From contig OZ220474.1 in assembly GCA_965115985.1 (NCBI GenBank), positions 3,172,504 to 3,236,503 of the forward strand: a DNA stretch of 64,000 bases, written 5' to 3'. The notes beneath the pieces are model-generated. The model saw nothing but the letters and a program-made list of their open reading frames with translations. It was not told where the DNA came from and did not search any database. Shown one piece after another: positions 9,843-49,811 of this stretch. Both the position numbers and the translations under genes were made by a program. This stretch comes from Acidimicrobiales bacterium. GTDB taxonomy: Bacteria > Actinomycetota > Acidimicrobiia > Acidimicrobiales > Bin134. Every line of letters begins with the position of its first letter. Positions within the stretch are counted from its first letter, which is position 1.

Positions 9843-10232
9843 CCGGAGCTGTGCGTGGGGGCGGTGGTGGTGCGGGAGAGTTCCATCCTGCTCATACGCC
9901 GGGGCCATCCGCCGGGGGAGGGGCGGTGGTCGGTGCCCGGCGGCAGGGTGCAACGGGGGGAGAGCCTGACCGATGCCGTCCGCCGGGAGCTACGGGAGGA
10001 AACCGGTTTGGACGGGGAGGTCGGCGAAGCCCTCGGCTGGACCGAGCTCATAGGTCGCCGCCGTCACTTCGTGGTGGTGGACTACCGGGTCACCGTGGCT
10101 CCCGATGCCCGGGCGACGGCTGGATCCGATGCCTCCGGTGCGGCTTGGGTCGCCTTCGACGATCTCGGTAACTGGGACTTGGTGGACGGCCTTCAGCAGT
10201 TCTTGGCCGACCACGAGGTCATTCCCCGGTAG
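9834..10232 (+). CDS. NUDIX hydrolase
   Basis: Nudix box GGRVQRGESLTDAVRRELREETGL. A longer ORF from 9798 exists, but ATG 9834 is the duplicated junction start. Confidence 0.85.
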   Translation: MSGPELCVGAVVVRESSILLIRRGHPPGEGRWSVPGGRVQRGESLTDAVRRELREETGLDGEVGEALGWTELIGRRRHFVVVDYRVTVAPDARATAGSDASGAAWVAFDDLGNWDLVDGLQQFLADHEVIPR

Positions 10233-13981: not shown

Positions 13982-14244
13982 GCCGGGGCGTGTACCCGGG
14001 TGCAGAGTGCCGCGGTCAACACCGCCAATAGCATCATTGGGCGGCCTGCCATGCCGGGGCGTGTACCCGGGTGCAGAGTGCCGCGGTCAACACCGCCAAT
14101 AGCATCATTGGGCGGCCCGCCATGCCGGGGCGAGCACCCGGGTACAGAGTGCCGCGGTCAACACCGCCAATAGCATCATTGGGCGGCCCGCCATGCCGGG
14201 GCGAGCACCCGGGTACAGAGTGCCGCGGTCAACACCGCCAATAG
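13961..14244. repeat. 4 x 71-bp tandem repeat of the tadB-stop/tadC-start overlap
   Basis: Copies start at 13961, 14032, 14103 and 14174. Each unit holds both a TadC-type ATG (MAGRPMM) and the TadB-type TGA about 16 nt downstream. The real tadC start is in copy 1 (13981). The real tadB stop is in copy 4 (14176-14178). Confidence 0.97.
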
Positions 14245-16754: not shown

Positions 16755-16871
16755 TAGTTGCCCCCCTCGACTCCGAGCAGACGATCGCGAACCACCGGCA
16801 GCATTAGTTGCCCCCCTCGACTCCGAGCAGACGATCGCGGACCGCCGGCAGCATTAGTTGCCCCCCTCGAC
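16716..16871. repeat. 3 x 50-bp tandem repeat of a TAATG stop/start junction (cpaB-like/tadA)
   Basis: Copies start at 16716, 16766 and 16816, with a partial copy at 16866. The tadA ATG (16754) is in the copy nearest tadA. The upstream gene stop (tta 16854-16856) is in the copy nearest that gene. Confidence 0.97.
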
Positions 16872-17546
16872 CGGGCATCCGATATCGCCGGGTCCACAGA
16901 GCACCAGCGGATCATCCTGGTAGACCTCGAACTCGCACAGGGGCCAACCCGCGGGGGGAGACTCCCATATCCACCACTGCTCGTCGGCCAAAACGGCGGC
17001 CAATTCCGGGTCGGCCTCCACCGTCACCCCGGAATCGCCGGCCTCGGTTCCGGCAGCCACCAGGTTGACCAGGGCGACAGCACAGCCCCCGGGGGTGGCC
17101 GCGAACACTGCCCGGGCCCCCGCGTACGGCCCGTCACCGGACCACATCTCGTGATTGGCCCCGATCCGTATCAACGTCGTGCGGCGGTTGTCCTCATCGG
17201 GTCGGGGGCGCAGCATCGCCGGCGACACCAGGGTGCCCTCGGGCACATCGGTGGTGGCCACGGTACCGTCCAGCTCCGGCTGGGTGATGAAGAGCCCGGC
17301 CAGGTCGGCGGGCACGCTCACGGTGGCGTGCCCCCCGGGGGGATACCCCTCGACCCATCGCTCGACGGTTGCCACCACCGGGACCTCGACTGGACCTTCG
17401 TCGTTGTCGGACAGGGCGAGAATGGTGACCACGGTGATGACCAGCACCGTCCCCGCGGCCATCAGCCGCCACCGGAAACTCACCGGCCAATCCGCCGGCG
17501 ACCATTGGTCCTTTTCCGGGCGGGTCACCATGTGGTCACCTGCCAT
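16854..17546 (-). CDS. CpaB/RcpC-like (SAF-domain) pilus assembly protein candidate
   Basis: N-terminal TM segment LMAAGTVLVITVVTILAL followed by a TDVPEGTLVSPAML SAF-like segment. It lies directly upstream of tadA. The start is 17546 or 17531. Confidence 0.5.
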   Translation of the reverse strand: MAGDHMVTRPEKDQWSPADWPVSFRWRLMAAGTVLVITVVTILALSDNDEGPVEVPVVATVERWVEGYPPGGHATVSVPADLAGLFITQPELDGTVATTDVPEGTLVSPAMLRPRPDEDNRRTTLIRIGANHEMWSGDGPYAGARAVFAATPGGCAVALVNLVAAGTEAGDSGVTVEADPELAAVLADEQWWIWESPPAGWPLCEFEVYQDDPLVLCGPGDIGCPVEGGN

Positions 17547-17613
17547 TGGTCCTTTTCCGGGCGGGTCACCATGTGGTCACCTGCCATTGGTCCTTTTCCG
17601 GGCGGGTCACCAT
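17502..17613. repeat. 2.7 x 41-bp tandem repeat of an ATGGTGA stop/start junction
   Basis: Copies start at 17502, 17543 and 17584. The stop of the 615-aa gene (tca 17607-17609) is in the copy nearest that gene. The cpaB-like starts are in the distal copies. Confidence 0.95.
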
Positions 17614-20745: not shown

Positions 20746-21168
20746 ATGGACAGCACCGTCTCCAAGTTCGACTCGGCCCGCATGGCTCGACAGCGAACTC
20801 GCGACACCGGGCCCGAGATGGTGCTGCGACGAGAGCTTCATCGCCGGGGCCTGCGCTATCGGGTGAGCTACCCGGTTCCGGGGAATCCGAGGAGGTCGAT
20901 CGACATCGCGTTCGTCAAGCCTCGCCTGGCCGTCTTCGTGGACGGCTGCTTCTGGCACGGCTGCCCCACCCACGGAACATGGCCGACCAACAACGCCGAA
21001 TGGTGGAGGAACAAGATCGAGAGGAACCGCAGGCGCGACACCGACACCGATCGCCTCCTTCGAGAGGACGGCTGGGAGCCCCTGCGCTTCTGGGAGCACG
21101 AGGTCGCCGCCGCCGCCGACCGCGTCCAGGCCGCCTATATCCAACGCCTCCGGGCGATCCGCCCATAG
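20746..21168 (+). CDS. vsr: Very short patch repair endonuclease
   Basis: TGPEMVLRRELHRRGLRYRV, IDIAF..AVFVDGCFWHGCP, and the WW-RNKIERNRRRD pattern typical of Vsr. Confidence 0.9.
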   Translation: MDSTVSKFDSARMARQRTRDTGPEMVLRRELHRRGLRYRVSYPVPGNPRRSIDIAFVKPRLAVFVDGCFWHGCPTHGTWPTNNAEWWRNKIERNRRRDTDTDRLLREDGWEPLRFWEHEVAAAADRVQAAYIQRLRAIRP

Positions 21169-21180
21169 GCTCTCGGACGG

Positions 21181-21314
21181 CCATGCCCCGCACCATCCGC
21201 CCATGAGCTCCCGAACAGCCATGCCCCGCACCATCCGCCCATGAGCTCCCGAACAGCCATGCCCCGCACCATCCGCCCATGAGCTCCCGAACAGCCATGC
21301 CCCGCACCATCCGC
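21181..21314. repeat. 3.5 x 38-bp tandem repeat at the vsr/dcm junction
   Basis: Copies start at 21181, 21219 and 21257, with a partial copy at 21295. Each carries atccgcccATGAgc. A more diverged copy at about 21143-21180 supplies the vsr stop (TAG 21166-21168). Confidence 0.95.
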
Positions 21315-22400
21315 TCGATCGACCTGTTCGCCGGAGCGGGTGGCTTGTCGCTGGGGTTCGAACTGGCCAACGAGGAACTGATGGGCATCGGCTTCGAGCC
21401 GGTTTTTGCCGTCGAGCACGATCCCGCGGCCGCCCTGACCTACAAGACCAACTTCGGGGTGGGGGTGTACGACGGTGACATCGAGGGATTGGATCCGATC
21501 ATCTACCCGAACGCGGAGATCGTCATCGGTGGTCCTCCCTGCCAGGGCTTTTCCCCACTCGGTCGCGACCGTGACGACAAGTCCCGTACCCGGTTGAATG
21601 CGCTTTGGGAGCACTATCTAGCTGCGGTGGAGCAAGTGAAGCCGCTGGCTTTCGTGATCGAGAACGTCCCCGAGTTCCAAAAATCCTCCGAGTTCGACGA
21701 ACTGCGCCGGCGGATGGCATCGCACCGCCTGCTTCGGGAGTACGGATACGGGTTCGGGGTGCTGAACGCGGCGGACTACGGGGTGCCCCAAAGCAGGCGT
21801 CGGGGCATCTTCCTCGCGGTAAGAGGCCGAGAGGTTCCCTGGCCTCCACCACCCACCCATGGCCACGGCTCCATCGGACAAGAACCGGTCAGGACGGTGC
21901 GGGATGCCATTGGGGATTTACCACCTGTACCCACCACCGACCGACCAGCCATGAGAGACGGTTTTCAGGATCTGCACATTCGCCGGAACCCTCGCCCGAC
22001 GTCACTGGAGCGGTATCGAGCCATTCCCGAGGGAGGCAACCGGTTCGACCTCCAGCGGAATCGTCCCGACCTGACCCCGGCGTGCTGGGCCAACAAGCCA
22101 ACCGGCACCACCGACGTCATGGGCAGGCTCTGGTGGGACCGGCCGAGCTTCACCATCCGCACCGAGTTCTACAAGCCCGAGAAAGGTCGATATCTGCACC
22201 CCTGCGAAGACCGCCCCATAACTCACCGCGAGGCCGCCCGCCTCCAAACCTTCCCCGACCCGTTCATCTTCGAGGGTACCAAGATCGAGATCGCCCGCCA
22301 GATCGGCAACGCCGTACCCCCTCTACTGGCCAAGGCCATCGCTCTTCACACTGCAAAACTTCTTGTTTCAAAAAGCGACATAAAATTTGTCGCTTTTTGA
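21279..22400 (+). CDS. dcm: DNA (cytosine-5)-methyltransferase
   Basis: Motif I DLFAGAGG, motif IV GGPPCQGFS, motif VI FVIENV, QSRRRGIF, motif X GNAVPPLLA. The start is 21279 or in-frame 21297 (MPRTIRSIDLF). Confidence 0.92.
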   Translation: MSSRTAMPRTIRSIDLFAGAGGLSLGFELANEELMGIGFEPVFAVEHDPAAALTYKTNFGVGVYDGDIEGLDPIIYPNAEIVIGGPPCQGFSPLGRDRDDKSRTRLNALWEHYLAAVEQVKPLAFVIENVPEFQKSSEFDELRRRMASHRLLREYGYGFGVLNAADYGVPQSRRRGIFLAVRGREVPWPPPPTHGHGSIGQEPVRTVRDAIGDLPPVPTTDRPAMRDGFQDLHIRRNPRPTSLERYRAIPEGGNRFDLQRNRPDLTPACWANKPTGTTDVMGRLWWDRPSFTIRTEFYKPEKGRYLHPCEDRPITHREAARLQTFPDPFIFEGTKIEIARQIGNAVPPLLAKAIALHTAKLLVSKSDIKFVAF

Positions 22401-23050: not shown

Positions 23051-24229
23051 ATGAGCGCCGAGACGCTTGTTCCGTCGTATGAGGATGCTGAGCGGGCGGC
23101 ACGCGTTCTGGTCGAGGAGCATGGTGTGGGGTCGGTGGTGCTGTTCGGATCGGTCGCCAACGGCACCGCTAGGGAGGGCAGCGACATAGACATGGTGGCC
23201 GTGTACGACGATCTGGACTACCGGTTCCGCTACGAGCGTTCCAGAGAGTTGGCGGCGGCGGCTCGTGCGCATGCAGGCTGCGAAGTGGATGTGAGGGTGA
23301 CGGACCGCCCGGAGTGGAAGCACCGCACCGAGGTCGTGCGCAATTCGTTCGAGAGCGGAATAGCGGATTCCGCGGTGGTGCTGGTTGACCATCCTCCAGG
23401 TGAAGTCAACTGGGACAAGGAGATAGGCATGCCGGACTCGGAGCAAAGAGAGATCGACCGCCGGTTGAACGACATCCGAAAAGAGCTAGAAGAAATCAAC
23501 AGCCGGTACGTAGCTACGCCTGAGGAGGTTGAGCTTCCATCAACTGACCTGCTTTGGTCTTTGCGGCGACAAGACCGTTTGATAGCTGTTTGTGCTCATG
23601 GAGCTATGGTTGTGGAGCACGGGTTGAAGGCTTTGCTGGCAATGTACAGTGTACCTCCCCCTCGCACTCATTCCGCAACTGAACTGCTGGATATTATTGA
23701 TCAACGACTGGACAACGTTCGCCTTGAAATACCTAGGAGCATGCTGAGGCAAATAGGAACATGGAGACAAGCGGGAACATATGGTGAAACTTTCTACGAA
23801 ATGAATATATCAATAGAAGAATTAAAAGAATTAGCTGCTCAATATTCAGCTATATCAATATCCATTACACGACAAGTAGTAAAGGAATATTCCCAACGCT
23901 ATACTACTCCTGGAAAATATGTTGACCCCCTGATTTACACTTGCGAGAAACTGGAAAAAACAAGAACAGAGCGCGATCTACTCTCAGGTAGCGTTACTGC
24001 AACACGCAAACGGCTTCGTTTGCCTCGAAGGTCCACCAGTTGCATGGCCTTGGCTACCGGTAGAGAGGCCTCCGTCTCTTCGAGCTCGACCTCCACGATC
24101 TTCGGCTCCGATGCCGGCTCGGGCGGTGGGGTGAATTCGGGAGGAGGTAGGGCATCAGGCATGCCTCGACATTACCAAGGCGGCCGGGCCTTGCCTTCTC
24201 TGATAGCGTTGAGAATATATGTTATGTAA
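23051..24229 (+). CDS. Nucleotidyltransferase-domain / HEPN-domain fusion protein
   Basis: The N-terminal segment VVLFGSVANGTAREGSDIDMVAV is a minimal NTase GS..DxD motif. The middle segment AHGAMVVEHGLKALLAMYSVPPPRTHSATELLDII is a HEPN-like helix pair. The last ~80 codons are low-complexity, so the true stop is uncertain. Confidence 0.6.
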   Translation: MSAETLVPSYEDAERAARVLVEEHGVGSVVLFGSVANGTAREGSDIDMVAVYDDLDYRFRYERSRELAAAARAHAGCEVDVRVTDRPEWKHRTEVVRNSFESGIADSAVVLVDHPPGEVNWDKEIGMPDSEQREIDRRLNDIRKELEEINSRYVATPEEVELPSTDLLWSLRRQDRLIAVCAHGAMVVEHGLKALLAMYSVPPPRTHSATELLDIIDQRLDNVRLEIPRSMLRQIGTWRQAGTYGETFYEMNISIEELKELAAQYSAISISITRQVVKEYSQRYTTPGKYVDPLIYTCEKLEKTRTERDLLSGSVTATRKRLRLPRRSTSCMALATGREASVSSSSTSTIFGSDAGSGGGVNSGGGRASGMPRHYQGGRALPSLIALRIYVM

Positions 24230-24360: not shown

Positions 24361-25230
24361 TCATGCGGCTTGGTGGTGGGTGTAGACCTGGGCGGGGGTG
24401 CGGTGGCCCAGTGAGCTGTGGTGGCGTTGGCGGTTGTAGAACACCTCGATGTAGTCGAACAGGATCGTCCGCAGTTGCGCGTGGCAGAGACGCTCCCAGG
24501 GGCCGTGGATGTGGCGGATTTCTTTTTTGAGGGTGGCCCAGAACGATTCCATGGCGGCGTTGTCGTAGCAATCTCCAACGGTTCCCCAGGAGCCGACGAG
24601 GCCGTCCTGGGCGAGGCGGTCGCCGAACGCCATGGAGGTGTATTGGGTTCCGTGGTCGCTGTGGTGCACCAGCCCGGCGCCGGGTCGGCGGCGGGCGATG
24701 GCCATGGCCAAGGCGTCGACGACCAATTCGGTGGTTTGGTGCTCGGCGATGGACCAGCCCACCAGGCTGCGGTCGCAGAGGTCCAGGATTCCCGCCAGGT
24801 GGACTTTGGTGTCGGCGCAACCGAACGAGCCTATGTCGGCCACCCATTTGCGGTCGGGCACCTCGGCGGTGAAGTCCCGGTCCAAAAGATCGGCGGCGGG
24901 CACCGTTTTGGTGCCGGGATCGTGGCGGCGACGGGGGGAACACGCCCCCACCAGCCGGTTCGCTCGCATCAGGCGGGCCACCCGGTTGCGGCCCACGCGG
25001 CGGCCGCGGTGGCGGAGCTGCTCGTGGACCCTCGGGGAGCCGTAGGTGCGTCTCGAGGTCTGGTGGATCTCGCGGATCTCGACCAAAAGCTTGGTGTCGG
25101 AGGTCTCACGCTTGGAGGGGCGTCTTTTGGCCCAGGCGTAGAACCCCGAGCGGCACACCCCGGTGACGCGGCACAAATCGGTGACCCGGTACTCGGCTCG
25201 GTGATCCGGGACGAACCGGTAGCCGATCAC
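24361..25230 (-). CDS. IS3-family transposase OrfB (DDE integrase domain)
   Basis: rve-type pattern: WVADI...H(S)D(H)G.QYTS....NAAMESFWATLKKE. It overlaps orfA as expected for frameshift fusion. Confidence 0.9.
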   Translation of the reverse strand: MIGYRFVPDHRAEYRVTDLCRVTGVCRSGFYAWAKRRPSKRETSDTKLLVEIREIHQTSRRTYGSPRVHEQLRHRGRRVGRNRVARLMRANRLVGACSPRRRHDPGTKTVPAADLLDRDFTAEVPDRKWVADIGSFGCADTKVHLAGILDLCDRSLVGWSIAEHQTTELVVDALAMAIARRRPGAGLVHHSDHGTQYTSMAFGDRLAQDGLVGSWGTVGDCYDNAAMESFWATLKKEIRHIHGPWERLCHAQLRTILFDYIEVFYNRQRHHSSLGHRTPAQVYTHHQAA

Positions 25231-25747: not shown

Positions 25748-26140
25748 ATGGGAAGTCGTCGGGTCGTGAAGGTGCTGGAGCTTCCGGAGGATATGGCGCA
25801 CTTCAAGTTCCGGCACGGGTACCATCGTCCGGTGGTCCAGTTCATCATGGACTGGAACGACCAGCCGGAGCGGCGCGTGGAGATGCTCTGCGGAGGGAAG
25901 GAACCCGTAGGTAAGGTTCCCAGTGATCTGGTGCTCATCGCTGCGGTCGTCCACGGCCTGTGCGACCGGGACGGGATTGCGGTGCCCGAGTGGGTGGCGT
26001 CTCATCGTCTTCGACCCCCGATCACGATGTCTCGTCAACCGGCGGACTCGGAGTGGGGTCGGTGGGTCGTGTCTCAGGCACCACCCGTCTGTTTCGAACA
26101 CGGGGTCTTCTTCGAGGCCGAGATGCTGTCGGCCACGTGA
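25748..26140 (+). CDS. Hypothetical protein, upstream partner of an NTase-like gene (possible antitoxin)
   Basis: 130-codon ORF whose TGA overlaps the GTG of the next gene (GTGA at 26137-26140). No domain was recognised. Confidence 0.4.
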   Translation: MGSRRVVKVLELPEDMAHFKFRHGYHRPVVQFIMDWNDQPERRVEMLCGGKEPVGKVPSDLVLIAAVVHGLCDRDGIAVPEWVASHRLRPPITMSRQPADSEWGRWVVSQAPPVCFEHGVFFEAEMLSAT

Positions 26141-26751
26141 GTGGTACGGAGGAGAAGTACTTCGACTCCGACCGGCTGATCGAGCTGCTCGGTAAGGTCG
26201 ATGCCCAACTGGGAGACGGTGAACCGATACGGGTCGTGGCCTGCGGGGGAGCGGTGCTGGCCTTGAGGTACGACTTTCGCATCACCAACGATGTCGACAT
26301 CATTTCGGAGCCATTCCCCGACGAACTTAAACAGGCGGCGAGGGCGGTGGCGGAGCGTCACGGCCTTCAGGATCAATGGGTCAACGATGCCGCCAAGATC
26401 TCGATTCCGAAACTCGCACCTCGGTTCGAGACGATCTACCAGGGTCGAAGACTGGAGGTTCTGAGTCCCGGCCCTCGCTTCTTGTTGGCCATGAAGCTGG
26501 CCGCAGGCAGAGACCGTGACCTGGAAGACGCCATACTGCTGGTGAGAGAAATAGGGTACAGCAGCATCGAGGACGTTCTGAACCTGGTCGAGACGGCCTG
26601 GGGACACACGCATTTCTCAATGTCGGTGGAGTACTTCACCCGGCAGGTCTACGAACTCGCCCAGCAGGAACAGCCCCATCTGCCGTCGGAGGCCCCCCAC
26701 GGATTCACCTCACGCCCGGATCCCGGCACCGGGCTAGACACCGGCCCGTAG
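26137..26751 (+). CDS. AbiEii/DUF6036-like nucleotidyltransferase-fold protein (possible toxin)
   Basis: VVACGGAVLALRYDFRITNDVDII is a GG..x..R.T.DxD pattern like AbiEii-type NTases. About 204 aa from GTG 26137. The track ORF from 25960 overlaps the upstream gene. Confidence 0.5.
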   Translation: MSGTEEKYFDSDRLIELLGKVDAQLGDGEPIRVVACGGAVLALRYDFRITNDVDIISEPFPDELKQAARAVAERHGLQDQWVNDAAKISIPKLAPRFETIYQGRRLEVLSPGPRFLLAMKLAAGRDRDLEDAILLVREIGYSSIEDVLNLVETAWGHTHFSMSVEYFTRQVYELAQQEQPHLPSEAPHGFTSRPDPGTGLDTGP

Positions 26752-28865: not shown

Positions 28866-31800
28866 CTAGGCGGTTGTGGTTGTGGTTCGGGTTAGGGCGG
28901 TGCAGGCGTCGTTGGCGAGGTCTGCGGGGTTGTCGCCGTGGTTGGCGTTGGCGAGGCGGCGGCATTCCTCGGCGAGTTCACGGTCGAATTGCTGGGGGTG
29001 GGTGGCGGCGAGGGTGTCGCCGGCTTTTTGGCGGGCTATGGCTTCGCGACGGGAGTAGGGCAAAGAGCACGTGTCGGCGACGCCGTCGCCGTCGGAGTCC
29101 AATGGGTAGGTGGTGGGTCCGCCGAGGGATTGGTTGGCGCAGTAGGAGGGGCCGGTGATGGTTCCCGAGTAGTAGGGCCCGCCGTCGTCGATGGGCGGGT
29201 ATCCGGGTGCGGCGAGGGCGTCGCCGCCGCAGGGTTCGTCGCCTTCGAGGGTGGCGCAGGCGGCGTTGACCAGTTTCCGGTATTGGTCGGGGTGGCGGTT
29301 GGCGAGGTTGGTGATCGCGTTCTGGCGGGCGATGGCTTCTCGGCGGGTGTAGGGCAAAGAGCAGGTGTCGGCGGTGCCGTCGCCGTCGGCGTCGAGGGCG
29401 AACAGGCGGGCACCGCCCAGGGATAGGTCGGCGCAGAACCTCGGCCCGGTGACGGTCCCGGAGTAGTAGTCGTCGCCGACCGTCGATGCCTCGGTGGGGG
29501 TCACTTCCTCGGAGACGGTGATCGCACCGTCTCCGACCGTGTTTTGGGCTCTCACCGCAAAAATGTAGGCGACGGTGCCGGTACCGCTGTCGAGGCCGGT
29601 CAAAGTGACGGTCGAAGCGTCGGCGGCCATCGTGGTCCACTCCCCCCAGTCGCCGACGCCGATGCGGGTGCGGTGCTGCCAGGCGTTGATCGCCGAACCC
29701 CCGTCACCCGTGGAGGTCCACGCCAGGGTGATCTGCCCGTCGCCGGCGGTCACGGTGAGTTCCGGGGCGGACGGCACCTTGGCGGGGGTGGCGGACTCGG
29801 CGGCGACCGCGCCGGTGCCGGCGGTGTTGGTGGCTCGAACCTCGAAGGTGTAAGCGACCCCGTTTTCCAGGTTCGGTATTGGCATACCGGTGGCGTCGGC
29901 GGCCATCGTCACCCATTCGCCGCCCGTGGTGCGTACTTGCCAGGCGGTGATCGGCGAACCCCCGTCACCGGTCGAGGCCCATACCAGGGCCACCATCGAA
30001 TCACCGGCCGTCGCGGCCAGTTCCGGGGCGGGTGGTGCTCCTGCCGGGGTGGCTTCGGCGGTGCCGGTCGCGCCGGGTCCGACGTCGTTAACGGCTCGCA
30101 CCTCGAAGGTGTAGGCAACACCGTTGGTCAGGTTGGGTACCGCCATGGTGGTCGTGGTCGGGTCGGCCACGACCACCCATTGGCCGCCGGTGGTGCGGTG
30201 TTGCCAGGCGGTGATCGGCGAGCCCCCGTCGCCGGTGGACGCCCATACCAGGGTCACCATCGCGTCGGCGGCCGTGGCGGTCACCGTCGGTGCCGCCGGC
30301 ACCGTGGCCGGGGTGGCCGACACGCTACCCGCGGGGCCCTCGCCGATGGCGTTGGTGGCTCGCACCTCGAAGGTGTAGGTGACGCCGTTGGTCAGGTTCT
30401 CGACGACGTGGCCGCTGCCGGCCACAGTGGTCCATCTTCCGAACTCGGTGTCGTCGGTTCTGGTTCGGTATTGCCAACCGGTGGTCTCCGACGCCCAGGT
30501 CGCCTCGCCGGGCGCGCCCGGGGTGCCGGGGGTCCACGACAGGGTTACTTCGCCGTCGCCGCGGGTGGCGCCCACCGATTCGGGGGCGGGCGGCACCGCA
30601 GAGGGTGTCACCGATTCGGACGCGAACGCGCCGCCCTTGATCTGCGGGTTGGCGGTGGTGGCGCGAACCTCGAACCGGTAAGCGATCCCGTTCGACAGGT
30701 CGCCCACGGTGTGGGTCGCGGTGGTGACGGTGCTGTCGGCGATGTTGGTCCATGAGCCGTAGCCGCCGTCGCCCTGGCGTTGGCGGTACTCCCAGCCGAC
30801 GATGGTGCTGCCCGCCGAACCAGCAGCGGTCCACGACAACACCACTCGGGCGTCGCCGGCGGTGGCGACCAGGGTGCCCGGAGCCGGCGGGCCGATCGGG
30901 GTCACCGCCGAGGTCTCAAAATGGGGGCCCGGCCCGTAAGCGTTACGGGCCCGGACTTGGAACGTGTAGGTGCGCCCGTTCACCAGGTTGCGCACCACCG
31001 CCCCGGTTTCCGCGGATGGTCTGGTGGCGGTGTCCGCGGTGGGGGCGACGGTGGTGCCCAGGGTCTCCCACGCGTCATAAACCCCGCCGGTGGTCTTTTT
31101 GCGTACTTCGTAGGCGACGACCCGGTTCAGGTTCAGTCCGGGTTGGGCGGGTTTGGCGACCCTGATCGTCGCTTCGCCGTCGCCGGCTTCCACCAGTGCC
31201 CGCACCGGAGCGCTGGGCGGGCGACCCGGGGTGGTTGGTAGTGCTTCGGCGGCGGCACCTGCGCCGATGGCGTTGCGGGCTCTTACTCGGAACGTGTAGG
31301 AGGTGCCGTTGGCCAACGCGGTGTCGTCGGCGGCGCCGGCGACGGCGAATTTCGTCACCGTCGCCGTGGTGGTGGCGGCGTGGCCACCGTCCACTTTTTG
31401 CCAATCGCCGGGGGCGTCGCAACCAGTGGTGGTCTCGCAGTACTCCCAACCGGTGATCGCCGGGCCGCCGTCGCCCGCGGAGACCCACGACAACACCACG
31501 CTGCGGTCGCCGCCTTTTGCGGTCAAATTCAGCGGGGCGGGCGGGGCCACCCCCGGTGTCGCCGGGCGGCGCGACTCGATGATCTGCCCGTACCACGGAC
31601 TCTCGTGGTCGGTGTTGTTGGTCGCCCTGACCCTGAATCGGTAGGCGACGCCGTTGTCCAAGCCGTCGACCACGTAACCATCCGACGCGCCGCCCGCGAA
31701 TTGTTCGCCGACGCCGATCGCCGTCCACGGCTGCCACGCTGCGTCGCCCACCCGATGGGAGTACTCCCACACCGTGTCGGCGTAGGTGCCCTCGTCGTCG

Positions 31801-34800
31801 GTGGTCGCGGCCACGAACGCGCCCCCCGCCGACGGTTTGTACTGAAGCTTCAACGTGGCTCGACTCGTGCCCGGCTCCACGTTCAGATAAGGGGGCTCGT
31901 TGGAACTATCGGGGTTGGCTGCACCGGGGAACGGCGGAGCCCCCCAGACGAACCTCAACTCGCCATGTGTACCTGCGCCGAGCCGGTTGACGTGACGCAA
32001 CCTGATGGTGTACTCGGTGCCGAGTTTTTTGGTTACGTCGTGGAAGGGTTTCCAACCGACGGGATTGTCGTCGCCGTCGAAGCGATGCCAGGTGCTCCAC
32101 GGCCCGTCGCCGGTTCTGAACGAGTACTCGTCCCTCAAGCGATCCGGACTGTCGTCGGCGTTGTCGAGCCTGTCGCGGTAAACGTGAAAAACCGCCTCCG
32201 CCCCCGCCGTTTTGGGGTCGGCGGAGTACCCGGCGTGGATGAAACCATCGGGTGAGCGCGGGACGTGGGCCTCGATGCGGGCATGGGCCACCGCGGAGGG
32301 CAGGCCCCCGGTGTTCGCGTCGTCGTCGGAGCGGTGGAAGGCGTTCAACGCCCGCACCACGATGTAGAAATCTCGGTTGTCCTCGAAGTAAGCGACGCCG
32401 TCGGGCAACCCGTCGGCGTTCGGGGGGCGGGGTATCGTCACCGAAGCAGTCGCCGCGCACTCCGGTGTCGTTGTCGCGTCGCAGATCGTTTTCCAGTCGG
32501 TGGAGCTCGCCAACGCGGTGGTGGTCTTGTCCAGTTTGTACTGCCATTTCGTCACCGGGGAGCCGCCGTCGCCGCCGGCCGCCCACGTGATCGTGATGCG
32601 GCCCTCACCGGATTCCGCGTCGTAGGCCGGGGTCAGCGTCACGTTGGTGGGAGCGGCGGGTCTTTGGCCGGGGTAGTGGTCCTTCGTGGTCTGCGCATAG
32701 GCGCCGCCGCCGGTGGCGTTGGTCGCCCGCACCCGGAACCCGTAAGCGGTGCCCGCGGTCAAGCCCGACACCATATAGGTTTGTTCGTCGGTGGCGGTGA
32801 TGCTCGCGCCACCGGTGCCGTCGCTGGTGGCGGTCACCGGGATCGCCTTCCACTCGCCCCACTGGCCGCCGGCGGCTTTTTGGGAGTATTCGTAGCGAAC
32901 GATGGGGGAGCCGCCGTTGTTCAGTTCCCCGCTCGTGTCGAGGGGGGGAGTCCAGCTCAGCGTCACCGAGTCCTTGCCCGGCGTGCCCGCCAAAGCGGTG
33001 GGCGCGCCGGGAACGTCGCCGGGGTTCACATCCGCGCTGGTGGCCGGGGTGCCCGCACCGTTTTTGTTGGTCGCTCTCACCTGGAAACGGTAAACCCACT
33101 CGTTCGCCAAACCCACCACCACATAACCCCGAGTAGCCGCGCTGCTGGCGGGAACCGCCGTCCACCGATCACCATCGACAAAAGCCGGAATGGTGGAACC
33201 CTCGGCCGCGCCCTTGTAGCGGTATTGCCAGCCGACGATGGGCGAGCCGCCGTCGCCGCCGGGTTGCCACGACAGCTCCACCGACCCGCTCGAGGGCGTC
33301 GCTTCCAATCCTCGGGCCCGGCCGGGCACGCCCGAGGCCACCACCCCGGTCGCTTGCGAGTGGGGGCCCGCACCGTTCGCGTTGACCGCTCGTACCCGGA
33401 ACCCGTAAACCGTGCCGTTGCTCAAACCGGTGACGGTGTGGGAGTCGTAGGCGTTGTACTCGCCGCTGGTGAAATCCAAGAACCCCGAAGCTGCCACCAT
33501 GATCGTCCACCCCGACCAGTCCCCATCACCAGTTTTGCGGGACGACTCGTAACGCAACACCGGCGAAAAACCGTTCGCCTCGACCGCCGCGTCCCTGCCG
33601 TCGGCCACCTTCGACCACGACAACGTGACCTGCGAATCCCCCGCCACCGCCTCGAAATTGGCGGGAGCCGCCGGAACCGACGACACCCGGCCCGCGTCGG
33701 GGAACGCGAGCGCCGCCCCGGCGACGCCGTCGGCGTCCACCGCCCGCACCTCGAACCCGTAGCGTTTGCCGACCGTCAAACCCGTCACCGTGTGGGTCGT
33801 GGTACGACCGTCGCTGCCGGGAACCGGCAACCAGCTCGACACCGTCGCGTCCTTGTCGCCGACCACCCAGAACGAGTACTCGTAGCGCACCACCGGAACA
33901 CCACCGGAACCCGAAGCGGGACCCCACCGCAACGTCACCGAACCATCACCAACGACCACCGCAGGCACCACCGAAACAGGAGCACCCGGCCCACCACCAA
34001 CCACCACAGTCGCAGTCGCAGTAGGCGTAGGCGTAGGCGTAGGCGTGGGGGTGGCAGTCGCAGTCGCAGTCGCAGTGGCAGTGGGAGTGGCAGTGGGCGT
34101 GGCAGTGGGAGTGGCAGTGGGAGTGGCAGTGGGCGTGGCAGTGGGAGTGGCAGTGGGAGTGGCAGTGGGAGTGGCAGTGGGAGTGGCAGTAGTCGTGAAA
34201 TCGGTCCGCACCTCGACGCCGGCAGTGGTCGTGCAGGCAGTGTTGACCCCGACGACACCCACCTTGTAACCCCTGGAAGCGACCAGATTGGAGAAAGTAT
34301 GGGTCTTGGCAGTTACAGGGACATCGTCACCGAATTTAACACCCGCAGAAGTGTAAATGCGAAGTATATAACTCACCGTCGCACAAGAACCAGCAGGCCC
34401 GGCCTGCCAAGTAACAACAGCATCCCAAGTATCATTACCAGAATTATGAGCAGGAGCCACCACAACATTAGTCACCGGACTCGGCCTCGTCTGAGCAGGC
34501 GTAGCAGTCGCAGTAGGCGTAGCAGTAGGCGTAGGTGTAGCAGTAGCAGTAGGCGTAGGTGTAGCAGCAGGATCAGCACTAGTAGTAAAGCTGGAAACCA
34601 CTATTTCTCCATTACTCGGGGAACATGACGGGTTGACCGAACGGACACCAACTCGGTACGAGGTGGAAGCACTCAAGCCGGAATGAGAATGAGACCTAGA
34701 CATCACAGTTCTAAGACTTCCGCTTACTATACTATTACCCGAAGAACCCCTATACACCCAAGCAAGCCAACGACTAGCTTCGCACCCGCTCGCCGACAAA

Positions 34801-34979
34801 TCCCAAGTAAAACTAACGGAATTATGAGTAGTAGTAACCTGAATATTGGTGGGCACCTTCGGAGCACCTTGGGCGGTCGCTTTTCCAGGAGCCAGGCCGA
34901 CGTCCGCGGCCACCAAGCCCGCGGCCACCAAACCGACTACGACCAGCAACCCCCAACCGGAGAACCTACGCCTACCCAC
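28866..34979 (-). CDS. Giant secreted fibronectin type III repeat protein (2037 aa)
   Basis: Signal/TM-like N-terminus followed by about 17 FN3-like units (recurrent LSW....GGSPI..W.Y......W..........V.GL.NG..Y.F.VRA.N..G.G). It has a Pro/Thr linker and two C-terminal DxDGDG modules. GTG start at 34979. Confidence 0.85.
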   Translation of the reverse strand: MGRRRFSGWGLLVVVGLVAAGLVAADVGLAPGKATAQGAPKVPTNIQVTTTHNSVSFTWDLSASGCEASRWLAWVYRGSSGNSIVSGSLRTVMSRSHSHSGLSASTSYRVGVRSVNPSCSPSNGEIVVSSFTTSADPAATPTPTATATPTPTATPTATATPAQTRPSPVTNVVVAPAHNSGNDTWDAVVTWQAGPAGSCATVSYILRIYTSAGVKFGDDVPVTAKTHTFSNLVASRGYKVGVVGVNTACTTTAGVEVRTDFTTTATPTATPTATPTATPTATPTATPTATPTATPTATPTATATATATATPTPTPTPTPTATATVVVGGGPGAPVSVVPAVVVGDGSVTLRWGPASGSGGVPVVRYEYSFWVVGDKDATVSSWLPVPGSDGRTTTHTVTGLTVGKRYGFEVRAVDADGVAGAALAFPDAGRVSSVPAAPANFEAVAGDSQVTLSWSKVADGRDAAVEANGFSPVLRYESSRKTGDGDWSGWTIMVAASGFLDFTSGEYNAYDSHTVTGLSNGTVYGFRVRAVNANGAGPHSQATGVVASGVPGRARGLEATPSSGSVELSWQPGGDGGSPIVGWQYRYKGAAEGSTIPAFVDGDRWTAVPASSAATRGYVVVGLANEWVYRFQVRATNKNGAGTPATSADVNPGDVPGAPTALAGTPGKDSVTLSWTPPLDTSGELNNGGSPIVRYEYSQKAAGGQWGEWKAIPVTATSDGTGGASITATDEQTYMVSGLTAGTAYGFRVRATNATGGGAYAQTTKDHYPGQRPAAPTNVTLTPAYDAESGEGRITITWAAGGDGGSPVTKWQYKLDKTTTALASSTDWKTICDATTTPECAATASVTIPRPPNADGLPDGVAYFEDNRDFYIVVRALNAFHRSDDDANTGGLPSAVAHARIEAHVPRSPDGFIHAGYSADPKTAGAEAVFHVYRDRLDNADDSPDRLRDEYSFRTGDGPWSTWHRFDGDDNPVGWKPFHDVTKKLGTEYTIRLRHVNRLGAGTHGELRFVWGAPPFPGAANPDSSNEPPYLNVEPGTSRATLKLQYKPSAGGAFVAATTDDEGTYADTVWEYSHRVGDAAWQPWTAIGVGEQFAGGASDGYVVDGLDNGVAYRFRVRATNNTDHESPWYGQIIESRRPATPGVAPPAPLNLTAKGGDRSVVLSWVSAGDGGPAITGWEYCETTTGCDAPGDWQKVDGGHAATTTATVTKFAVAGAADDTALANGTSYTFRVRARNAIGAGAAAEALPTTPGRPPSAPVRALVEAGDGEATIRVAKPAQPGLNLNRVVAYEVRKKTTGGVYDAWETLGTTVAPTADTATRPSAETGAVVRNLVNGRTYTFQVRARNAYGPGPHFETSAVTPIGPPAPGTLVATAGDARVVLSWTAAGSAGSTIVGWEYRQRQGDGGYGSWTNIADSTVTTATHTVGDLSNGIAYRFEVRATTANPQIKGGAFASESVTPSAVPPAPESVGATRGDGEVTLSWTPGTPGAPGEATWASETTGWQYRTRTDDTEFGRWTTVAGSGHVVENLTNGVTYTFEVRATNAIGEGPAGSVSATPATVPAAPTVTATAADAMVTLVWASTGDGGSPITAWQHRTTGGQWVVVADPTTTTMAVPNLTNGVAYTFEVRAVNDVGPGATGTAEATPAGAPPAPELAATAGDSMVALVWASTGDGGSPITAWQVRTTGGEWVTMAADATGMPIPNLENGVAYTFEVRATNTAGTGAVAAESATPAKVPSAPELTVTAGDGQITLAWTSTGDGGSAINAWQHRTRIGVGDWGEWTTMAADASTVTLTGLDSGTGTVAYIFAVRAQNTVGDGAITVSEEVTPTEASTVGDDYYSGTVTGPRFCADLSLGGARLFALDADGDGTADTCSLPYTRREAIARQNAITNLANRHPDQYRKLVNAACATLEGDEPCGGDALAAPGYPPIDDGGPYYSGTITGPSYCANQSLGGPTTYPLDSDGDGVADTCSLPYSRREAIARQKAGDTLAATHPQQFDRELAEECRRLANANHGDNPADLANDACTALTRTTTTTA
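34008..34193. repeat. Coding microsatellite (12-bp/6-bp units) encoding a (TPTA)n/(TA)n/(TP)n linker
   Basis: Residues 263-324 of the 2037-aa protein. Highly regular ggcagtgggagt-type units are visible on the plus strand. Confidence 0.9.
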
Positions 34980-45600: not shown

Positions 45601-45701
45601 AGGAGAGGAATATGAGATTCTCGGAAAAGGTGGCCCGCAAGGACGTCCTGGAGAACGGCCAACTCGGGGAGGCATCATGAGATTCTCGGGGAAGGTGGCC
45701 C
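45601..45701. repeat. Duplicated RBS+start region (period 65 bp) of the SDR gene
   Basis: ATGAGATTCTCGG(A/G)(A/G)AAGGTGGCCC occurs at 45612 and 45677, each preceded by a ggag-type RBS. The first copy opens a 22-codon ORF (45612-45680) ending in ATGA on the real start. Confidence 0.9.
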
Positions 45702-46435
45702 TGGTCACCGGGGCCGGGTCGGGAATCGGCCAGGCCACTGCGGCCCGGCTGGTGGGCGAGGGAGCGGTCGTGGTGGGCAGCGACGTCAGTTCGTCCGGCC
45801 TGGAGGAGACCGCGGGGATGATCGATGGGATGGTCGATGGAGCCGGGGGTTTCCATCCGGTGGTGTCCGACGTGCGCTCCCGGGAGGCCTGCCATGAGTT
45901 GGTGGCCTCGACCGTGGCCGAGCACGGGCAACTGGACGTGCTGTGCAACATCGCCGGGTTGGCCCGGAGCCATCGAGTGGGCGATGTGGATCAAGGCACC
46001 TGGGATCTGATCATGGAGGTGAACGTGGGCGGGGTGTTCTGGATGTCGCAGGCCGCGCTCCCCCACCTGGAGGCCTCCGGGGGGTGCATCGTGAACATGG
46101 CCTCCAACGCCGGGCAGATCGGGCAGGCCTACACCGTGCCCTACTGCGCCAGCAAGGGAGCGGTGATCTTGATGACCAAGGCCATGGCCATGGAGACCAT
46201 CCGCACCTCGGTGAGGATCAACGCCGTCGCTCCGGGTGGGGTGGACACCAACCTGGTGACGTCCTTCGGGTTTCCCGACGACCCGGACATGGAGCTGATG
46301 GGGCGATACATGGGCTTTCGAGGAATGGCCCAGGCCGACGACATCGCCTCGGCGGTGGCCTACCTGGCCTCCCCCGAGGCCCACCGCATCCACGGAGCGG
46401 TCCTGAACGTCGATGCCGGCTTGACCGCCGGATGA
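45677..46435 (+). CDS. SDR-family oxidoreductase
   Basis: VTGAGSGIG Rossmann motif and YCASKGAV catalytic motif. Confidence 0.85.
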   Translation: MRFSGKVALVTGAGSGIGQATAARLVGEGAVVVGSDVSSSGLEETAGMIDGMVDGAGGFHPVVSDVRSREACHELVASTVAEHGQLDVLCNIAGLARSHRVGDVDQGTWDLIMEVNVGGVFWMSQAALPHLEASGGCIVNMASNAGQIGQAYTVPYCASKGAVILMTKAMAMETIRTSVRINAVAPGGVDTNLVTSFGFPDDPDMELMGRYMGFRGMAQADDIASAVAYLASPEAHRIHGAVLNVDAGLTAG

Positions 46436-46595
46436 GCTGGGGTCCTGAACGTCGATGCCGGCTTGACCGCCGGATGAGCTGGGGTCCTGAACGTCGATGC
46501 CGGCTTGACCGCCGGATGAGCTGGGATCCTGCCGGTCGCCGGGTGTTGGTCACCGGATGAGCTGGGATCCCGCCGGTCGCCGGGTGCTGGTCACC
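46400..46595. repeat. Nested tandem duplications (3 x 42 bp, then 2 x 41 bp) around an ATGA junction between two SDR genes
   Basis: ggATGAgctggg occurs at 46430, 46472, 46514 and 46555. The first TGA (46433-46435) stops SDR 1. The last ATG (46557) starts SDR 2. Confidence 0.97.
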
Positions 46596-47348
46596 GGGGC
46601 CTCGTCGGGCATCGGGGCCGCCCTGGCGGTGGAGTTGGGCCGGGGCGGAGCCTTCGTGGGCCTGGCCGCCCGCCGGGGCGACCGCCTCCAGCAGGTTCTG
46701 TCCGAGGTACGGGCCGCGGGCGGCGACGGCTGCTGGTGGACGCTCGACCTGGCCGATCTCGACGAGGTGGCCCCCTTCGCGGCGCGGGCCTGGGCGGAGA
46801 TGGGCCCCATCGACGTGCTGGTCAACAACGCGGGTGCTCCTCGACGACGGTCGATGAAGAGGCTCACCCCCGAGGAGCTGGACGAGACGTTGGCAGTGAA
46901 CTTCACCGGCTCGGCCCGGCTCACCCTGGCTCTTTTGCCCCACATGCTGGAGCGGGACTCCGGGGACATCGTGAACGTGTCGTCCATGGGCACCCAGTCG
47001 ATGGCCTTCAGAACCGGGGCCTACGGCGCGGCCAAGGCCGCCATCAACCTGTTCACCGAGGGCCTGTACATGGATCTGGCCGGAACCGGTGTCCGGGCTC
47101 ATCTGTTCGTCCCCGGCAGCACCGCCACCGAGTTCTCCACCCCCAAACCGGGCAACGACCGCCCGTTCCCCCAGCCCGAAGGGGCTTCCATGGACCCGGT
47201 GGACGTGGCCCGAGCCCTGATCGCCAAACTGGGCACCGACGACTTCGAGGGCTTCGCCGCCCCCGATCTCGAAAAAACCGCCCAAGCCAAACGCTCCGAC
47301 CCCAACCACTACCTGACACAAATGCTCAACCACCTCTCCCGACGCTAA
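46557..47348 (+). CDS. SDR-family oxidoreductase
   Basis: VTGASSGIGAA Rossmann motif and YGAAKAAI catalytic motif. Confidence 0.85.
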   Translation: MSWDPAGRRVLVTGASSGIGAALAVELGRGGAFVGLAARRGDRLQQVLSEVRAAGGDGCWWTLDLADLDEVAPFAARAWAEMGPIDVLVNNAGAPRRRSMKRLTPEELDETLAVNFTGSARLTLALLPHMLERDSGDIVNVSSMGTQSMAFRTGAYGAAKAAINLFTEGLYMDLAGTGVRAHLFVPGSTATEFSTPKPGNDRPFPQPEGASMDPVDVARALIAKLGTDDFEGFAAPDLEKTAQAKRSDPNHYLTQMLNHLSRR

Positions 47349-47461: not shown

Positions 47462-48343
47462 CTAGAATGTGAGCAATAGGCGATCTGATACTTGTTCATC
47501 CTCGAGTGTCTCTCCACCACGCTGAAACCTCCGCAATTGAGAGACTCCACAATTAACAAAAGCCTCGCGTTCGAATAATCCATCCGGAAGCTCAAACTCA
47601 ATAGTTCGTTGTCCAGACTTTTTAGTTCCATCAATACTGAGCAAGACAGCTACACCTCGGTCTTTGCATTCGCTAATTACATGGACCAGACGATCCAGTT
47701 TAAAGGTCTGTGCGCCATATAGTATTGCTTGAGTATCGCTATACGGAGGATCGCAGTATACGACATCTCCAGCCTTAGTTTGGCTCATTGCTTCTTCAAA
47801 ATCACAATTGGTGAAGGTTGTACCAGATACTCGTCTCGTCCAAATATCGACACGATTATCAAAAGAAGCTGGAGTAACCGGATTATGCGGTCCGCACGGT
47901 GTAGACATGTAACCATCCGCTTGCCTGAAACGAACGACCCCTCCGTAGCAGGAACGCGTCAGAAATAAAAAATCAGCAGCGTTTGGCTCTGTGTTGTAAG
48001 AGGTCTTGATGTCCTCATAAACCTCTAGTTTATTTCCTGCTTCCATTCGATTCCAGCGCTCACGATACCAATTCTTCAAAGTCTCTGGGTCTATTCGGAG
48101 TGTCTTCCATATATCAATAAGCGGTTTGAAAGCGTCCGACCCGTAACCAACCTCTGGTGCCAGTGTCCCAAGAACTGCGCCACTGCCCAAGAATGGTTCA
48201 TGATAAGCATTCCTGTCCTCAGGGAAGTAAGAGACGATCTCATGGGCAAAGCGCTGCTTGTTTCCGATCCACTTCAGTAGTTGTGTCTTGAACGGCCGGA
48301 TCGCTGGGCGAACGTCGTCGATGTGGAAAGCGAGTTGATGCAT
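47462..48343 (-). CDS. Dam-like (D12 class) N6-adenine DNA methyltransferase
   Basis: LLKWIGNKQRF, motif I EPFLGSGAVLG, motif IV CDPPY. AT-rich gene. The ATG at 48343 is preferred over the TTG at 48373. Confidence 0.85.
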   Translation of the reverse strand: MHQLAFHIDDVRPAIRPFKTQLLKWIGNKQRFAHEIVSYFPEDRNAYHEPFLGSGAVLGTLAPEVGYGSDAFKPLIDIWKTLRIDPETLKNWYRERWNRMEAGNKLEVYEDIKTSYNTEPNAADFLFLTRSCYGGVVRFRQADGYMSTPCGPHNPVTPASFDNRVDIWTRRVSGTTFTNCDFEEAMSQTKAGDVVYCDPPYSDTQAILYGAQTFKLDRLVHVISECKDRGVAVLLSIDGTKKSGQRTIEFELPDGLFEREAFVNCGVSQLRRFQRGGETLEDEQVSDRLLLTF

Positions 48344-48406
48344 GTTCCCGAACCTAGCCGAGCAGTGCGACAACGATGGTGTCCACTCCGTTTAGAGAGC
48401 GACTCC

Positions 48407-48753: not shown

Positions 48754-48993
48754 GTGGAGAAAAGCATCGGAACCGCAGAGCATGCCGCGCTGGCAGCTTT
48801 GCTCCGAAGGCTGCGGGTCGAAGCTGGACTTCGACAATCCGAACTCGCAGAACTTCTTGAGGAACCTCAGTCCTTCGTCAGCAAGTACGAGTCGGGTGAG
48901 CACCGACTTGATCTAGTGGAGTTAAGGACAATTGCGCTTCACTTGGGTCTGGATATCATCGAACTATCACGCAAGTTTGAGAGATCTTTGTGA
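48754..48993 (+). CDS. XRE-family HTH protein, controller (C) protein candidate of the R-M cassette
   Basis: LRRLRVEAGLRQSELAELL..SFVSKYESGEHRLDLVEL is an HTH_3 pattern. 79 aa. Its stop overlaps the GTG of the downstream endonuclease candidate (GTGA). Confidence 0.7.
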   Translation: MEKSIGTAEHAALAALLRRLRVEAGLRQSELAELLEEPQSFVSKYESGEHRLDLVELRTIALHLGLDIIELSRKFERSL

Positions 48994-49811
48994 AACCACA
49001 CGATGAGTTTTTCAACCGAGAGAAGAGTTTCTGGGCGCACGTGCGTGCTATCAGCGAAACAGTTGGCTATACCAAGCGTGGGAGTGGGCTAGTAAAGGCT
49101 CCAACGGAGAATGAAATAAAAAGTGCTCTAGACAAGCGCGGTCTAGATGGGTCACGCACTTTATATAATGGCCTAGCTTTGGATTTGTACGCTTACTTCC
49201 AATATCGATCGAAAGTTCTAAATGAGGAGGTTGAAGGGCTCCTGATGGATGCTGATGAAGCAGAGAAACTGTTTGAAGAGCAGCACAATCTGCTGAGTCC
49301 AACCTGTCCAATCCCGATGAATAAACAAAAGGGCAAGATGAAAAAGCCAGCGTTTCTGACAGGACTTGTCAATATGCTTGTGGAAGCACATATCAATGGA
49401 ATGCCTTGCGACTATGATCCACGCTCCCTAACAACATTTACCAAAGACGGGGCACCACTTAGGACGCTCGCGAGACGTGTCGACGGTGCGTTTCCTTCTA
49501 CAGTTAATCCAAAGGCTATTTGGGAGATCAAAGAGTACTACTACACCACTACGTTCGGGAGCAGAGTTGCAGATGGTGTTTATGAGACTCTACTGGACGG
49601 AATGGAACTCGAAGAACTTCGGATGAACGAGGGCGTTAAGGTTCATCACTACTTGATGGTTGATAGTTACTACACGTGGTGGGAGTGTGGACGATCCTAT
49701 CTTTGCAGAATAATAGATATGCTTAATATGGGTCTTGTAGATGAAGTTCTTTTTGGCCGAGAGGTTGTGTCAGAACTGCCCCGTATCGTCCGTGGGTGGC
49801 TCACGGAATAA
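48990..49811 (+). CDS. Type II restriction endonuclease candidate (PD-(D/E)XK-like)
   Basis: AT-rich 273-codon ORF. VDGAFPS..x10..WEIKEY fits a D...(D/E)xK core. It is translationally coupled to the HTH gene and divergent from the methylase. No specific family was recognised. Confidence 0.5.
   Translation: MKPHDEFFNREKSFWAHVRAISETVGYTKRGSGLVKAPTENEIKSALDKRGLDGSRTLYNGLALDLYAYFQYRSKVLNEEVEGLLMDADEAEKLFEEQHNLLSPTCPIPMNKQKGKMKKPAFLTGLVNMLVEAHINGMPCDYDPRSLTTFTKDGAPLRTLARRVDGAFPSTVNPKAIWEIKEYYYTTTFGSRVADGVYETLLDGMELEELRMNEGVKVHHYLMVDSYYTWWECGRSYLCRIIDMLNMGLVDEVLFGREVVSELPRIVRGWLTE

Follow-up and report, generated by a model that had tools for sequence, protein, structure and literature searches.

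The DNA analysed here is a window of 64,000 nucleotides (nt) from an Acidimicrobiales bacterium (contig OZ220474.1, positions 3,172,504 to 3,236,503), in which two co-directional short-chain dehydrogenase/reductase (SDR) genes, SDR1 and SDR2, are joined through a nested set of short tandem repeats. Both products match the Pfam family adh_short and carry the N-terminal TGxxxGxG motif expected of SDRs (VTGAGSGIG in SDR1, VTGASSGIG in SDR2). SDR1 is 100% identical to protein P0001, encoded on a 3.37-Mb contig, and its next-nearest relatives, at 75-84% identity, are found in Candidatus Poriferisocius and other sponge-associated Acidimicrobiia. The features of the locus, with an open reading frame (ORF) that bridges the two genes, are as follows, numbered from the first nucleotide of the window.

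45612..45701, plus strand: older duplicate of the SDR1 start; ATGAGATTCTCGG(A/G)(A/G)AAGGTGGCCC at 45612 and 45677, spacing 65
45677..46435, plus strand: SDR1, short-chain dehydrogenase/reductase, 252 aa (Pfam adh_short, 1.8e-50)
46399..46531, plus strand: 42-bp tandem array, units 46400-46441, 46442-46483 and 46484-46525, all three identical
46432..46560, plus strand: bridging (relay) ORF of 42 codons, MSWGPERRCRLDRRMSWGPERRCRLDRRMSWDPAGRRVLVTG*, overlapping both neighbours
46512..46597, plus strand: 41-bp tandem array, units 46512-46552 and 46553-46593
46557..47348, plus strand: SDR2, short-chain dehydrogenase/reductase, 263 aa (Pfam adh_short, 8.9e-50)

Anatomy of the SDR1/SDR2 junction

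The window contains exactly four occurrences of the junction motif GGATGAGCTGGG, at 46430, 46472, 46514 and 46555, the same four sites that the initial annotation had reported. Its description of three 42-bp and two 41-bp copies also holds. Each 42-bp unit consists of the last 11 codons of SDR1, the ATGA and 6 nt beyond it, and Tandem Repeats Finder (TRF) returns this array with a period of 42, 3.2 copies and a 98% match. The 41-bp units comprise CCGG, the ATGA and the first 12 codons of SDR2, and differ from each other by two C/T substitutions, both synonymous in the SDR2 frame (TRF period 41, 2.1 copies, 95%). Fourteen nucleotides (CCGGATGAGCTGGG) are common to the third 42-mer and the first 41-mer. 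The borders of the 41-bp array carry a 4-nt microhomology, CCGG, at 46512, 46553 and 46594, and those of the 42-bp array an imperfect one, GGTCCTG at 46399 versus GATCCTG at 46525 (6/7). The whole is made up of two nested tandem duplications, in agreement with the earlier claim of at least two events; the events probably number three.

SDR1 terminates at the TGA of the first ATGA copy (46433-46435) and SDR2 begins at the fourth copy, as previously proposed. Only the last ATG shares the frame of SDR2, and orthologues support the resulting N-terminus, MSWDP..RVLVTGASSGIG. The three upstream ATGs, at 46432, 46474 and 46516, lie together in a different frame, because 42 is a multiple of three. The last step, of 41 nt, equals 2 modulo 3, so this second frame lands on the TGA of the fourth ATGA. 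The outcome, which had been overlooked in the initial annotation, is the bridging ORF: it begins within the ATGA at 46432, where its ATG shares bases with the SDR1 stop, and ends within the ATGA at 46557, where its TGA shares bases with the SDR2 start, so that SDR1, the bridge and SDR2 remain joined through ATGA overlaps. No Pfam family was matched by the bridging ORF (46432-46560), and no terminator-like or promoter-like site was found in the spacer between the SDR genes. RNA folding of the spacer is no better than that of shuffled sequences (z = -0.2), and neither an Rfam family nor a structured RNA or tRNA was found in the array and its vicinity.

SDR1 itself has been enlarged from 248 to 252 aa by a 12-bp in-frame duplication at 45815-45840. 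In the relative OZ241836.1 the protein measures 260 aa, since 36 bp of the same loop were independently duplicated in frame (L005 10115-10184), which suggests that this loop is an insertion-tolerant site.

Ancestral state of the junction

Orthologous SDR pairs, whose comparison the initial annotation had proposed, share one ATGA overlap. A single overlap of this kind joins SDR1 and SDR2 in 25 of the 26 species-level loci of the clade, and also in loci L091 and L092, with near-identical flanks (..accgcaggATGAgctgggatcc..) among related loci. The spacing is -4 in all 24 array-free species versus +121 here, the bases added at the junction being 2 × 42 + 41 = 125 nt. Since 26 of 27 related species loci of the Candidatus Poriferisocius clade have one ATGA overlap, the structure in the window is derived. 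SDR1 and SDR2 do not overlap each other directly in this genome; each overlaps the bridging ORF instead. The sole exception among the relatives is OZ241383.1, where two ATGA copies are separated by 76 nt. The 80-nt step between them is again 2 modulo 3, and the spacer forms an ORF of 27 codons, which carries an in-frame duplication of 21 bp and terminates on the ATG of SDR2. When metagenomes were scanned with a 27-nt pattern from the junction, no match was obtained.

Other spacers have grown as well. The one between SGL and SDR1 has reached 153 nt, whereas the median in relatives is 29 nt, and the one between hyp224 and SDR265 measures 222 nt against 21-25 nt in 20 species. At the older duplicate of the SDR1 start, a 22-codon ORF (45612-45680) runs up to a TGA that shares bases with the true SDR1 start codon, the ATG at 45677.

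A burst of local duplications

The SDR junction is one of many such sites. The window holds 36 local direct repeats, compared with 0 in each of three 12-nt block shuffles, and the repeats are therefore far beyond chance. About 23 of the 36 lie at gene ends or between genes. Counting TRF arrays with a period of at least 20 and at least 85% match, we found 21 in window positions 1-47400, or 0.44 per kb. Only 2 (0.005 per kb) were found in 382 kb of other loci of the clade, a set in which complete long-read chromosomes are represented, as is the closest relative found, whose CpaF is 89% identical; the density in the window is about 85-fold higher. OZ241383.1 and OZ241836.1, which are among the closest genomes by SDR1 identity (82-83%), have about 0.15 arrays per kb. 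The burst is peculiar to this genome and, in weaker form, to these two relatives.

The array units match the orthologous gene ends at their own loci, and the units of 26 arrays show no similarity to one another, apart from 13 nt common to the two SDR arrays. Units that copy local gene ends and are not shared between loci do not form a dispersed element family. A mobile family of the MIRU or REP type inserted at the junction would be suggested by the 41-42 bp units, the operon-internal site and the overlapping small ORF, all of which resemble MIRUs (PMC12548453). At the SDR junction, however, the units copy the 3' end of SDR1 and the 5' end of SDR2 as these occur in 26 related loci. This local origin, together with the lack of similarity between arrays, refutes a dispersed mobile repeat family, to which we give virtually no credence.

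It is also quite improbable that the SDR array is an adaptive, copy-number-variable switch (a variable-number tandem repeat) by which SDR2 expression is tuned or phase-varied. The identity of the three 42-bp copies marks them as recent or homogenised, and a 63-bp in-gene array does vary: two contigs of a relative, 98% identical to each other, carry 4.4 and 3.4 copies. Yet dozens of unrelated junctions bear similar arrays, so that nothing singles out the SDR operon, and four arrays of OZ241383.1 are invariant across independent samples.

Probable selective retention at gene boundaries

Gene ends were taken from orthologue-based boundaries, as calling from the G+C content of third codon positions (GC3) was too noisy in this high-GC genome. 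The periods of in-gene arrays are divisible by three in 13/13 cases, compared with 5/23 for boundary arrays (Fisher p = 7e-6); when fn3 domain repeats are left out, the in-gene figure is 9/9 (p = 7e-5). The in-gene arrays are located in acidic, low-complexity, disordered or terminal segments. In a compact relative, duplications of these sizes would hit a gene boundary in only about 10-11% of cases if placed at random, whereas about 23 of 32 short-period arrays in the window (23 at boundaries and 9 in genes, without fn3) do so. A duplication that spans a stop or a start leaves one intact copy of the gene and thereby escapes purifying selection.

The initial annotation had taken the doubled junction as the clearest evidence that junctions are either hot spots or preferentially retained. 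The divisible-by-three contrast and the 23/32 against an expected ~10% bear out its second alternative: we favour selective retention as the source of the boundary excess, and a hot spot is not required. True mutational hot spots at gene junctions, arising from transcription or translation termination, replication-transcription conflict or local structure, would make the excess a matter of input rate. Two distinct duplications at the SDR junction point that way, as do the independent arrays with different periods at the 3' end of the sulfotransferase gene (34 bp here, 28 bp in L001 and 67 bp in L005). With some 23 boundary arrays over some 45 junctions, however, about four junctions would be hit twice by chance at the present array density, so the double hit at the SDR junction is not in itself evidence of a hot spot. 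The divisible-by-three contrast is a signature of selection and suffices to explain the observed distribution. Arrays occur inside genes too, in tolerant segments, and we found neither a motif common to the array borders nor any unusual structure. We consider hot spots unlikely.

The same contrast bears on whether the repeats were created in assembly or library preparation. The collections searched contained a single assembly of this genome, but an artefact would not respect reading frames (no gene is disrupted by the in-gene arrays), would not yield diverged copies and would not preserve gene boundaries supported by orthologues. The arrays of OZ241383.1, moreover, recur without a single base difference in independent assemblies built from other runs. 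We regard an artefact as very improbable. Short-read assemblies of OZ241383.1 (L002 and L004) end at 11606, inside a 48-bp array (L001 11563-11695). The L089 assembly ends near a 60-bp array (L088 15872-16001).

Relay reading frames at other junctions

The geometry of the SDR junction recurs at seven other junctions of the window, listed here.

6518..6625, plus strand: 80-bp-spaced duplicate of the Thy1 start; ATGAGCCAGTACG at 6533 and 6613
8852..8936, plus strand: 41-bp array of 2.1 copies at the GTGA junction of h161 and h81 (-4 overlap in L087); the orthologue-supported h81 start is GTG 8902, in the second copy
9749..9843, plus strand: 59-bp-spaced duplicate at the ATGA junction of an acetyltransferase and a NUDIX gene; ATGA at 9775 and 9834
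13961..14246, minus strand: 71-bp array of 4 copies at the ATGATG junction of geneD and geneE (Tad locus); geneE start 13966
16715..16871, minus strand: 50-bp array of 3.1 copies at the geneC/CpaF junction (TAATG here, TGATG in relatives); CpaF start 16754
17502..17613, minus strand: 41-bp array of 2.7 copies at the ATGGTGA (-7) junction of geneB and geneC; geneC start 17531, in the last copy
21157..21314, plus strand: 38-bp array of 4.2 copies at the vsr/dcm ATGA junction; a chain of 13-codon relay ORFs ends on dcm ATG 21279

At every array on an ancestrally overlapping junction, the upstream gene ends in the first copy and the orthologue-supported start of the downstream gene lies in the last. 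Each upstream copy of the start opens a short ORF that stops on the next copy of the start, and relay chains of this kind exist in the window. Single relay ORFs of 27 and 20 codons end on the true starts of Thy1 (6613) and NUDIX (9834), respectively, and chains of 24-codon and 16-codon ORFs run through the geneD/geneE and geneC/CpaF arrays. M20 and Thy1 are spaced +150 nt apart in the window, whereas L087 and L090 have a -4 overlap between them. The vsr/dcm array lies between the genes for a Vsr very-short-patch endonuclease (20746..21168) and a C5 cytosine methyltransferase (21279..22400), and its relay was assigned without an orthologue.

For overlaps of -1, -4 and -7 the stop frame equals the start frame plus one, and a period of 2 modulo 3 therefore gives a relay. 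With such a period, a ribosome setting out from one start copy reads the duplicated 3' end of the upstream gene in its native frame, to that gene's own stop. Among the nine arrays at ancestrally overlapping junctions, eight have a period of 2 modulo 3, one of 0 and none of 1, which gives P = 0.001 against a null of 1/3; the other boundary arrays reach 6/14. In array-free relatives, 47-67% of the microhomology pairs that span such junctions are already at 2 modulo 3 (k = 4-8, 30-80 nt apart). In this high-GC3 clade, short exact matches linking the 3' end of a gene with the 5' end of its downstream neighbour are commoner in matching codon phase, which at an overlapping junction corresponds to a distance of 2 modulo 3, so that the null exceeds 1/3 there. 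Against this microhomology null the p value for 8/9 is only about 0.02-0.07.

These figures bear on the idea that a translation-frame filter acts at the junctions, whereby duplications that keep chains of stop/start overlaps (a period of 2 modulo 3 for -1, -4 or -7 overlaps, or of 0 modulo 3 with an open frame) survive preferentially and preserve reinitiation coupling. Such a filter would add to the explanation by slippage and selection that is set out below, and is not exclusive of it. Besides the 8/9 and the fact that the ORF of every upstream start copy ends on the next start, it is favoured by the relay ORF of OZ241383.1, whose 80-nt ATGA-to-ATGA step has also accepted an in-frame duplication, and by the constancy of the -4 overlap of the SDR pair in the array-free species. 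An untranslated gap of 121 nt would break coupling, given a limit of ~20 nt (PMC10666635). The microhomology null stands against it, and the hypothesis was formed post hoc on n = 9. We therefore put the filter forward tentatively, as a less than even prospect.

Two candidate arrays were rejected as carriers of a start. The orthologue-supported start near the 12496 array, at 12487, lies outside it, and comparison with L009 dismissed the 74-bp array at 40010 as holding the start of the sulfotransferase gene. The sulfotransferase gene probably begins at the conserved GTG near 40248. The array itself (40010-40198) is perfect, with 2.6 copies of 74 bp. Its source is a divergent minus-strand gene, intact beside the sulfotransferase gene in L009 and lost here, of which it repeats the 5' end (MAQHVPEIEWTEDAL).

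Proposed mechanism

Short local duplications that arose by microhomology-mediated replication slippage from a single ancestral ATGA overlap, and were then filtered by selection, very likely account for the SDR junction. The ancestor would have had one 4-bp ATGA overlap between SDR1 and SDR2, in a lineage that acquired a very high rate of short tandem duplication, for which slippage between short direct repeats would be the most likely cause. The 41-bp segment bounded by CCGG was probably duplicated first, and the 42-bp segment bounded by GGTCCTG/GGATCCTG then probably twice. The 41-bp copies are probably the older ones because they differ by two substitutions, whereas the 42-bp copies are identical. 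After duplication of a junction, the upstream gene would end at the first stop copy and the downstream gene start at the last start copy. Selection would purge frameshifting and most in-frame duplications inside genes, leaving arrays to accumulate at junctions. Ribosomes finishing SDR1 could reinitiate on the bridging ORF and then again on SDR2. At the SDR junction, the copies are arranged head to tail and are single-copy in relatives, and short direct repeats lie at their borders, as slippage predicts; at many other arrays the borders have been obscured by later divergence.

Three points weigh against this account. The order of events is read solely from the divergence between copies, which homogenisation of the arrays could distort, and the copy number at 46400-46597 is that of one assembly. 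Furthermore, many arrays have large non-integer remainders and take the form A-B-A, which simple slippage does not predict. In the 17502 array the missing B corresponds to an original copy that has diverged, suggesting an old duplication followed by divergence and re-duplication. Templated copying from elsewhere in the window was considered as the source of the B fillers and rejected, as the fillers have no other match in the window on either strand with up to 5 mismatches.

A wider reading, which is speculative and which we rather doubt, is that a tandem-duplication mutator state, present in this bacterium and more weakly in two relatives, is even now building intergenic DNA from gene ends, and that at former overlaps only those duplications are kept that form chains of mini-ORFs and so relay coupling. 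If true, compact operons would gain spacers and new small ORFs by this route, and the arrays would represent an equivalent of MIRUs that is generated locally and does not move.

Comparison with known systems

Microhomology-mediated tandem duplications (MTDs) arising from replication slippage have been mapped genome-wide in Schizosaccharomyces pombe (PMC8639346). The SDR arrays resemble them as head-to-tail local duplications between short direct repeats, here CCGG and GGTCCTG/GATCCTG. Further likenesses are that longer microhomologies favour frame-preserving outcomes and that existing arrays are prone to further change in copy number. Unlike the S. pombe MTDs, the arrays described here are fixed, number tens per 50 kb of a bacterial chromosome, are concentrated at gene ends and reflect a lineage-specific increase in rate.

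For the mycobacterial interspersed repetitive units (MIRU-VNTR; Supply et al. 1997), the summaries in PMC12548453 and PMC3635867 describe an ORF proposed to maintain translational coupling. On that description, MIRUs are tandem units of 40-100 bp that lie inside actinobacterial operons between co-directional genes, as do the SDR arrays, and the start and stop of the repeat ORF overlap the stop and start of the flanking genes by -4, as is the case for 46432-46560. MIRUs are a dispersed family, thought to be mobile, whereas each array here copies its own locus. The host, moreover, belongs to the Acidimicrobiia and not to Mycobacterium.

The picture at the level of the genome most resembles the tandem repeats of Borgs (PMC9879509). 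Those repeats are likewise genome-specific, unique to each locus and nearly absent from relatives (0.44 versus 0.005 per kb in our case), their units are all divisible by three within ORFs and only in a minority of cases between genes, and partial repeats flank the arrays. Their copy number varies within populations (PMC9879509). Borg repeats, in contrast, are A-rich, perfect and carried on archaeal linear elements, whereas the arrays described here have ~67% G+C and lie on a bacterial chromosome, several of them are 82-97% identical, and many, unlike those of Borgs, span stop/start junctions and form relay ORFs.

ATGA and TGATG overlapping gene pairs are coupled by termination-reinitiation (PMC6728339, PMC10666635), and an untranslated spacer of ~20 nt almost fully abolishes this coupling in E. 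coli and Haloferax (PMC10666635). The ancestral SDR1/SDR2 arrangement is a textbook -4 overlap whose geometry every copy of the junction retains. It differs from such pairs in its present form, as the genes now lie 121 nt apart and coupling would have to pass through the 42-codon ORF.

Mechanistically, the SDR junction alone is an ordinary tandem duplication, and the interest lies in the genome-wide burst and the relay chains. Most gene junctions in a 47-kb stretch are inflated by locus-derived duplications of 30-80 bp. In the literature searched we found no earlier description of such junction-spanning local duplications in bacteria or bacterial chromosomes, and no paper on repeats in Candidatus Poriferisocius genomes. 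The window offers a natural experiment on the birth of intergenic DNA and small ORFs from coding sequence, on the filtering of structural mutations by reading frame through selection, and on whether junk ORFs can relay translational coupling. In annotating genomes of this kind, a gene's start codon should be placed at the last copy and its stop codon at the first.

Other features of the window

Two low-GC islands, at 47400-49830 and 22000-27500, contain almost no arrays; their G+C content is ~52-53% at its lowest, compared with 65-70% in the core. The first sits between SDR2 and an APH gene, which adjoin in relatives, and encodes a D12 N6-adenine methyltransferase (47462..48373, minus strand) and a DUF7690/DUF7687 protein (48990..49811). 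The second holds genes for a nucleotidyltransferase/HEPN protein (23051..24229), an IS3-type transposase (24361..25230, minus strand) and an AbiEii-like protein (25960..26751).

In the Tad locus, geneB (17607-19598, minus strand) encodes 663 aa versus 511 aa in the closest relative, a gain in size due to in-frame arrays of 45 bp (4 copies) and 198 bp (2.9 copies); the variable 63-bp array cited above is located in the geneB of that relative. The Tad pilus ATPase CpaF carries a 60-bp in-frame duplication of 2.3 copies near its C-terminus (15036-15175, minus strand), and is 585 aa long; most relatives have a CpaF of 542 aa, and the closest one found has 512 aa.

Two giant surface proteins are encoded in the remainder of the window.

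28866..34979, minus strand: giant fn3/PKD/Calx-beta surface protein, 2037 aa
52595..63523, plus strand: giant fn3/PKD/Calx-beta surface protein, 3642 aa

Homopolymer tracts occur at 52570-52588 (C19), at 34995-35010 (G16 on the plus strand, C16 on the coding strand) and at ~26775-26791 (C17). Such tracts lie 15-40 nt upstream of the likely starts, followed by signal peptides, of both giant proteins, and the ATG just upstream of each tract is off-frame by one base at the assembled tract length; they may be phase-variation tracts. Within 58981-62790, TRF rows recur about 2607 bp apart (60142 and 62749; 58994, 60317 and 61601), a sign that a large segment of the giant fn3 gene has been duplicated internally.

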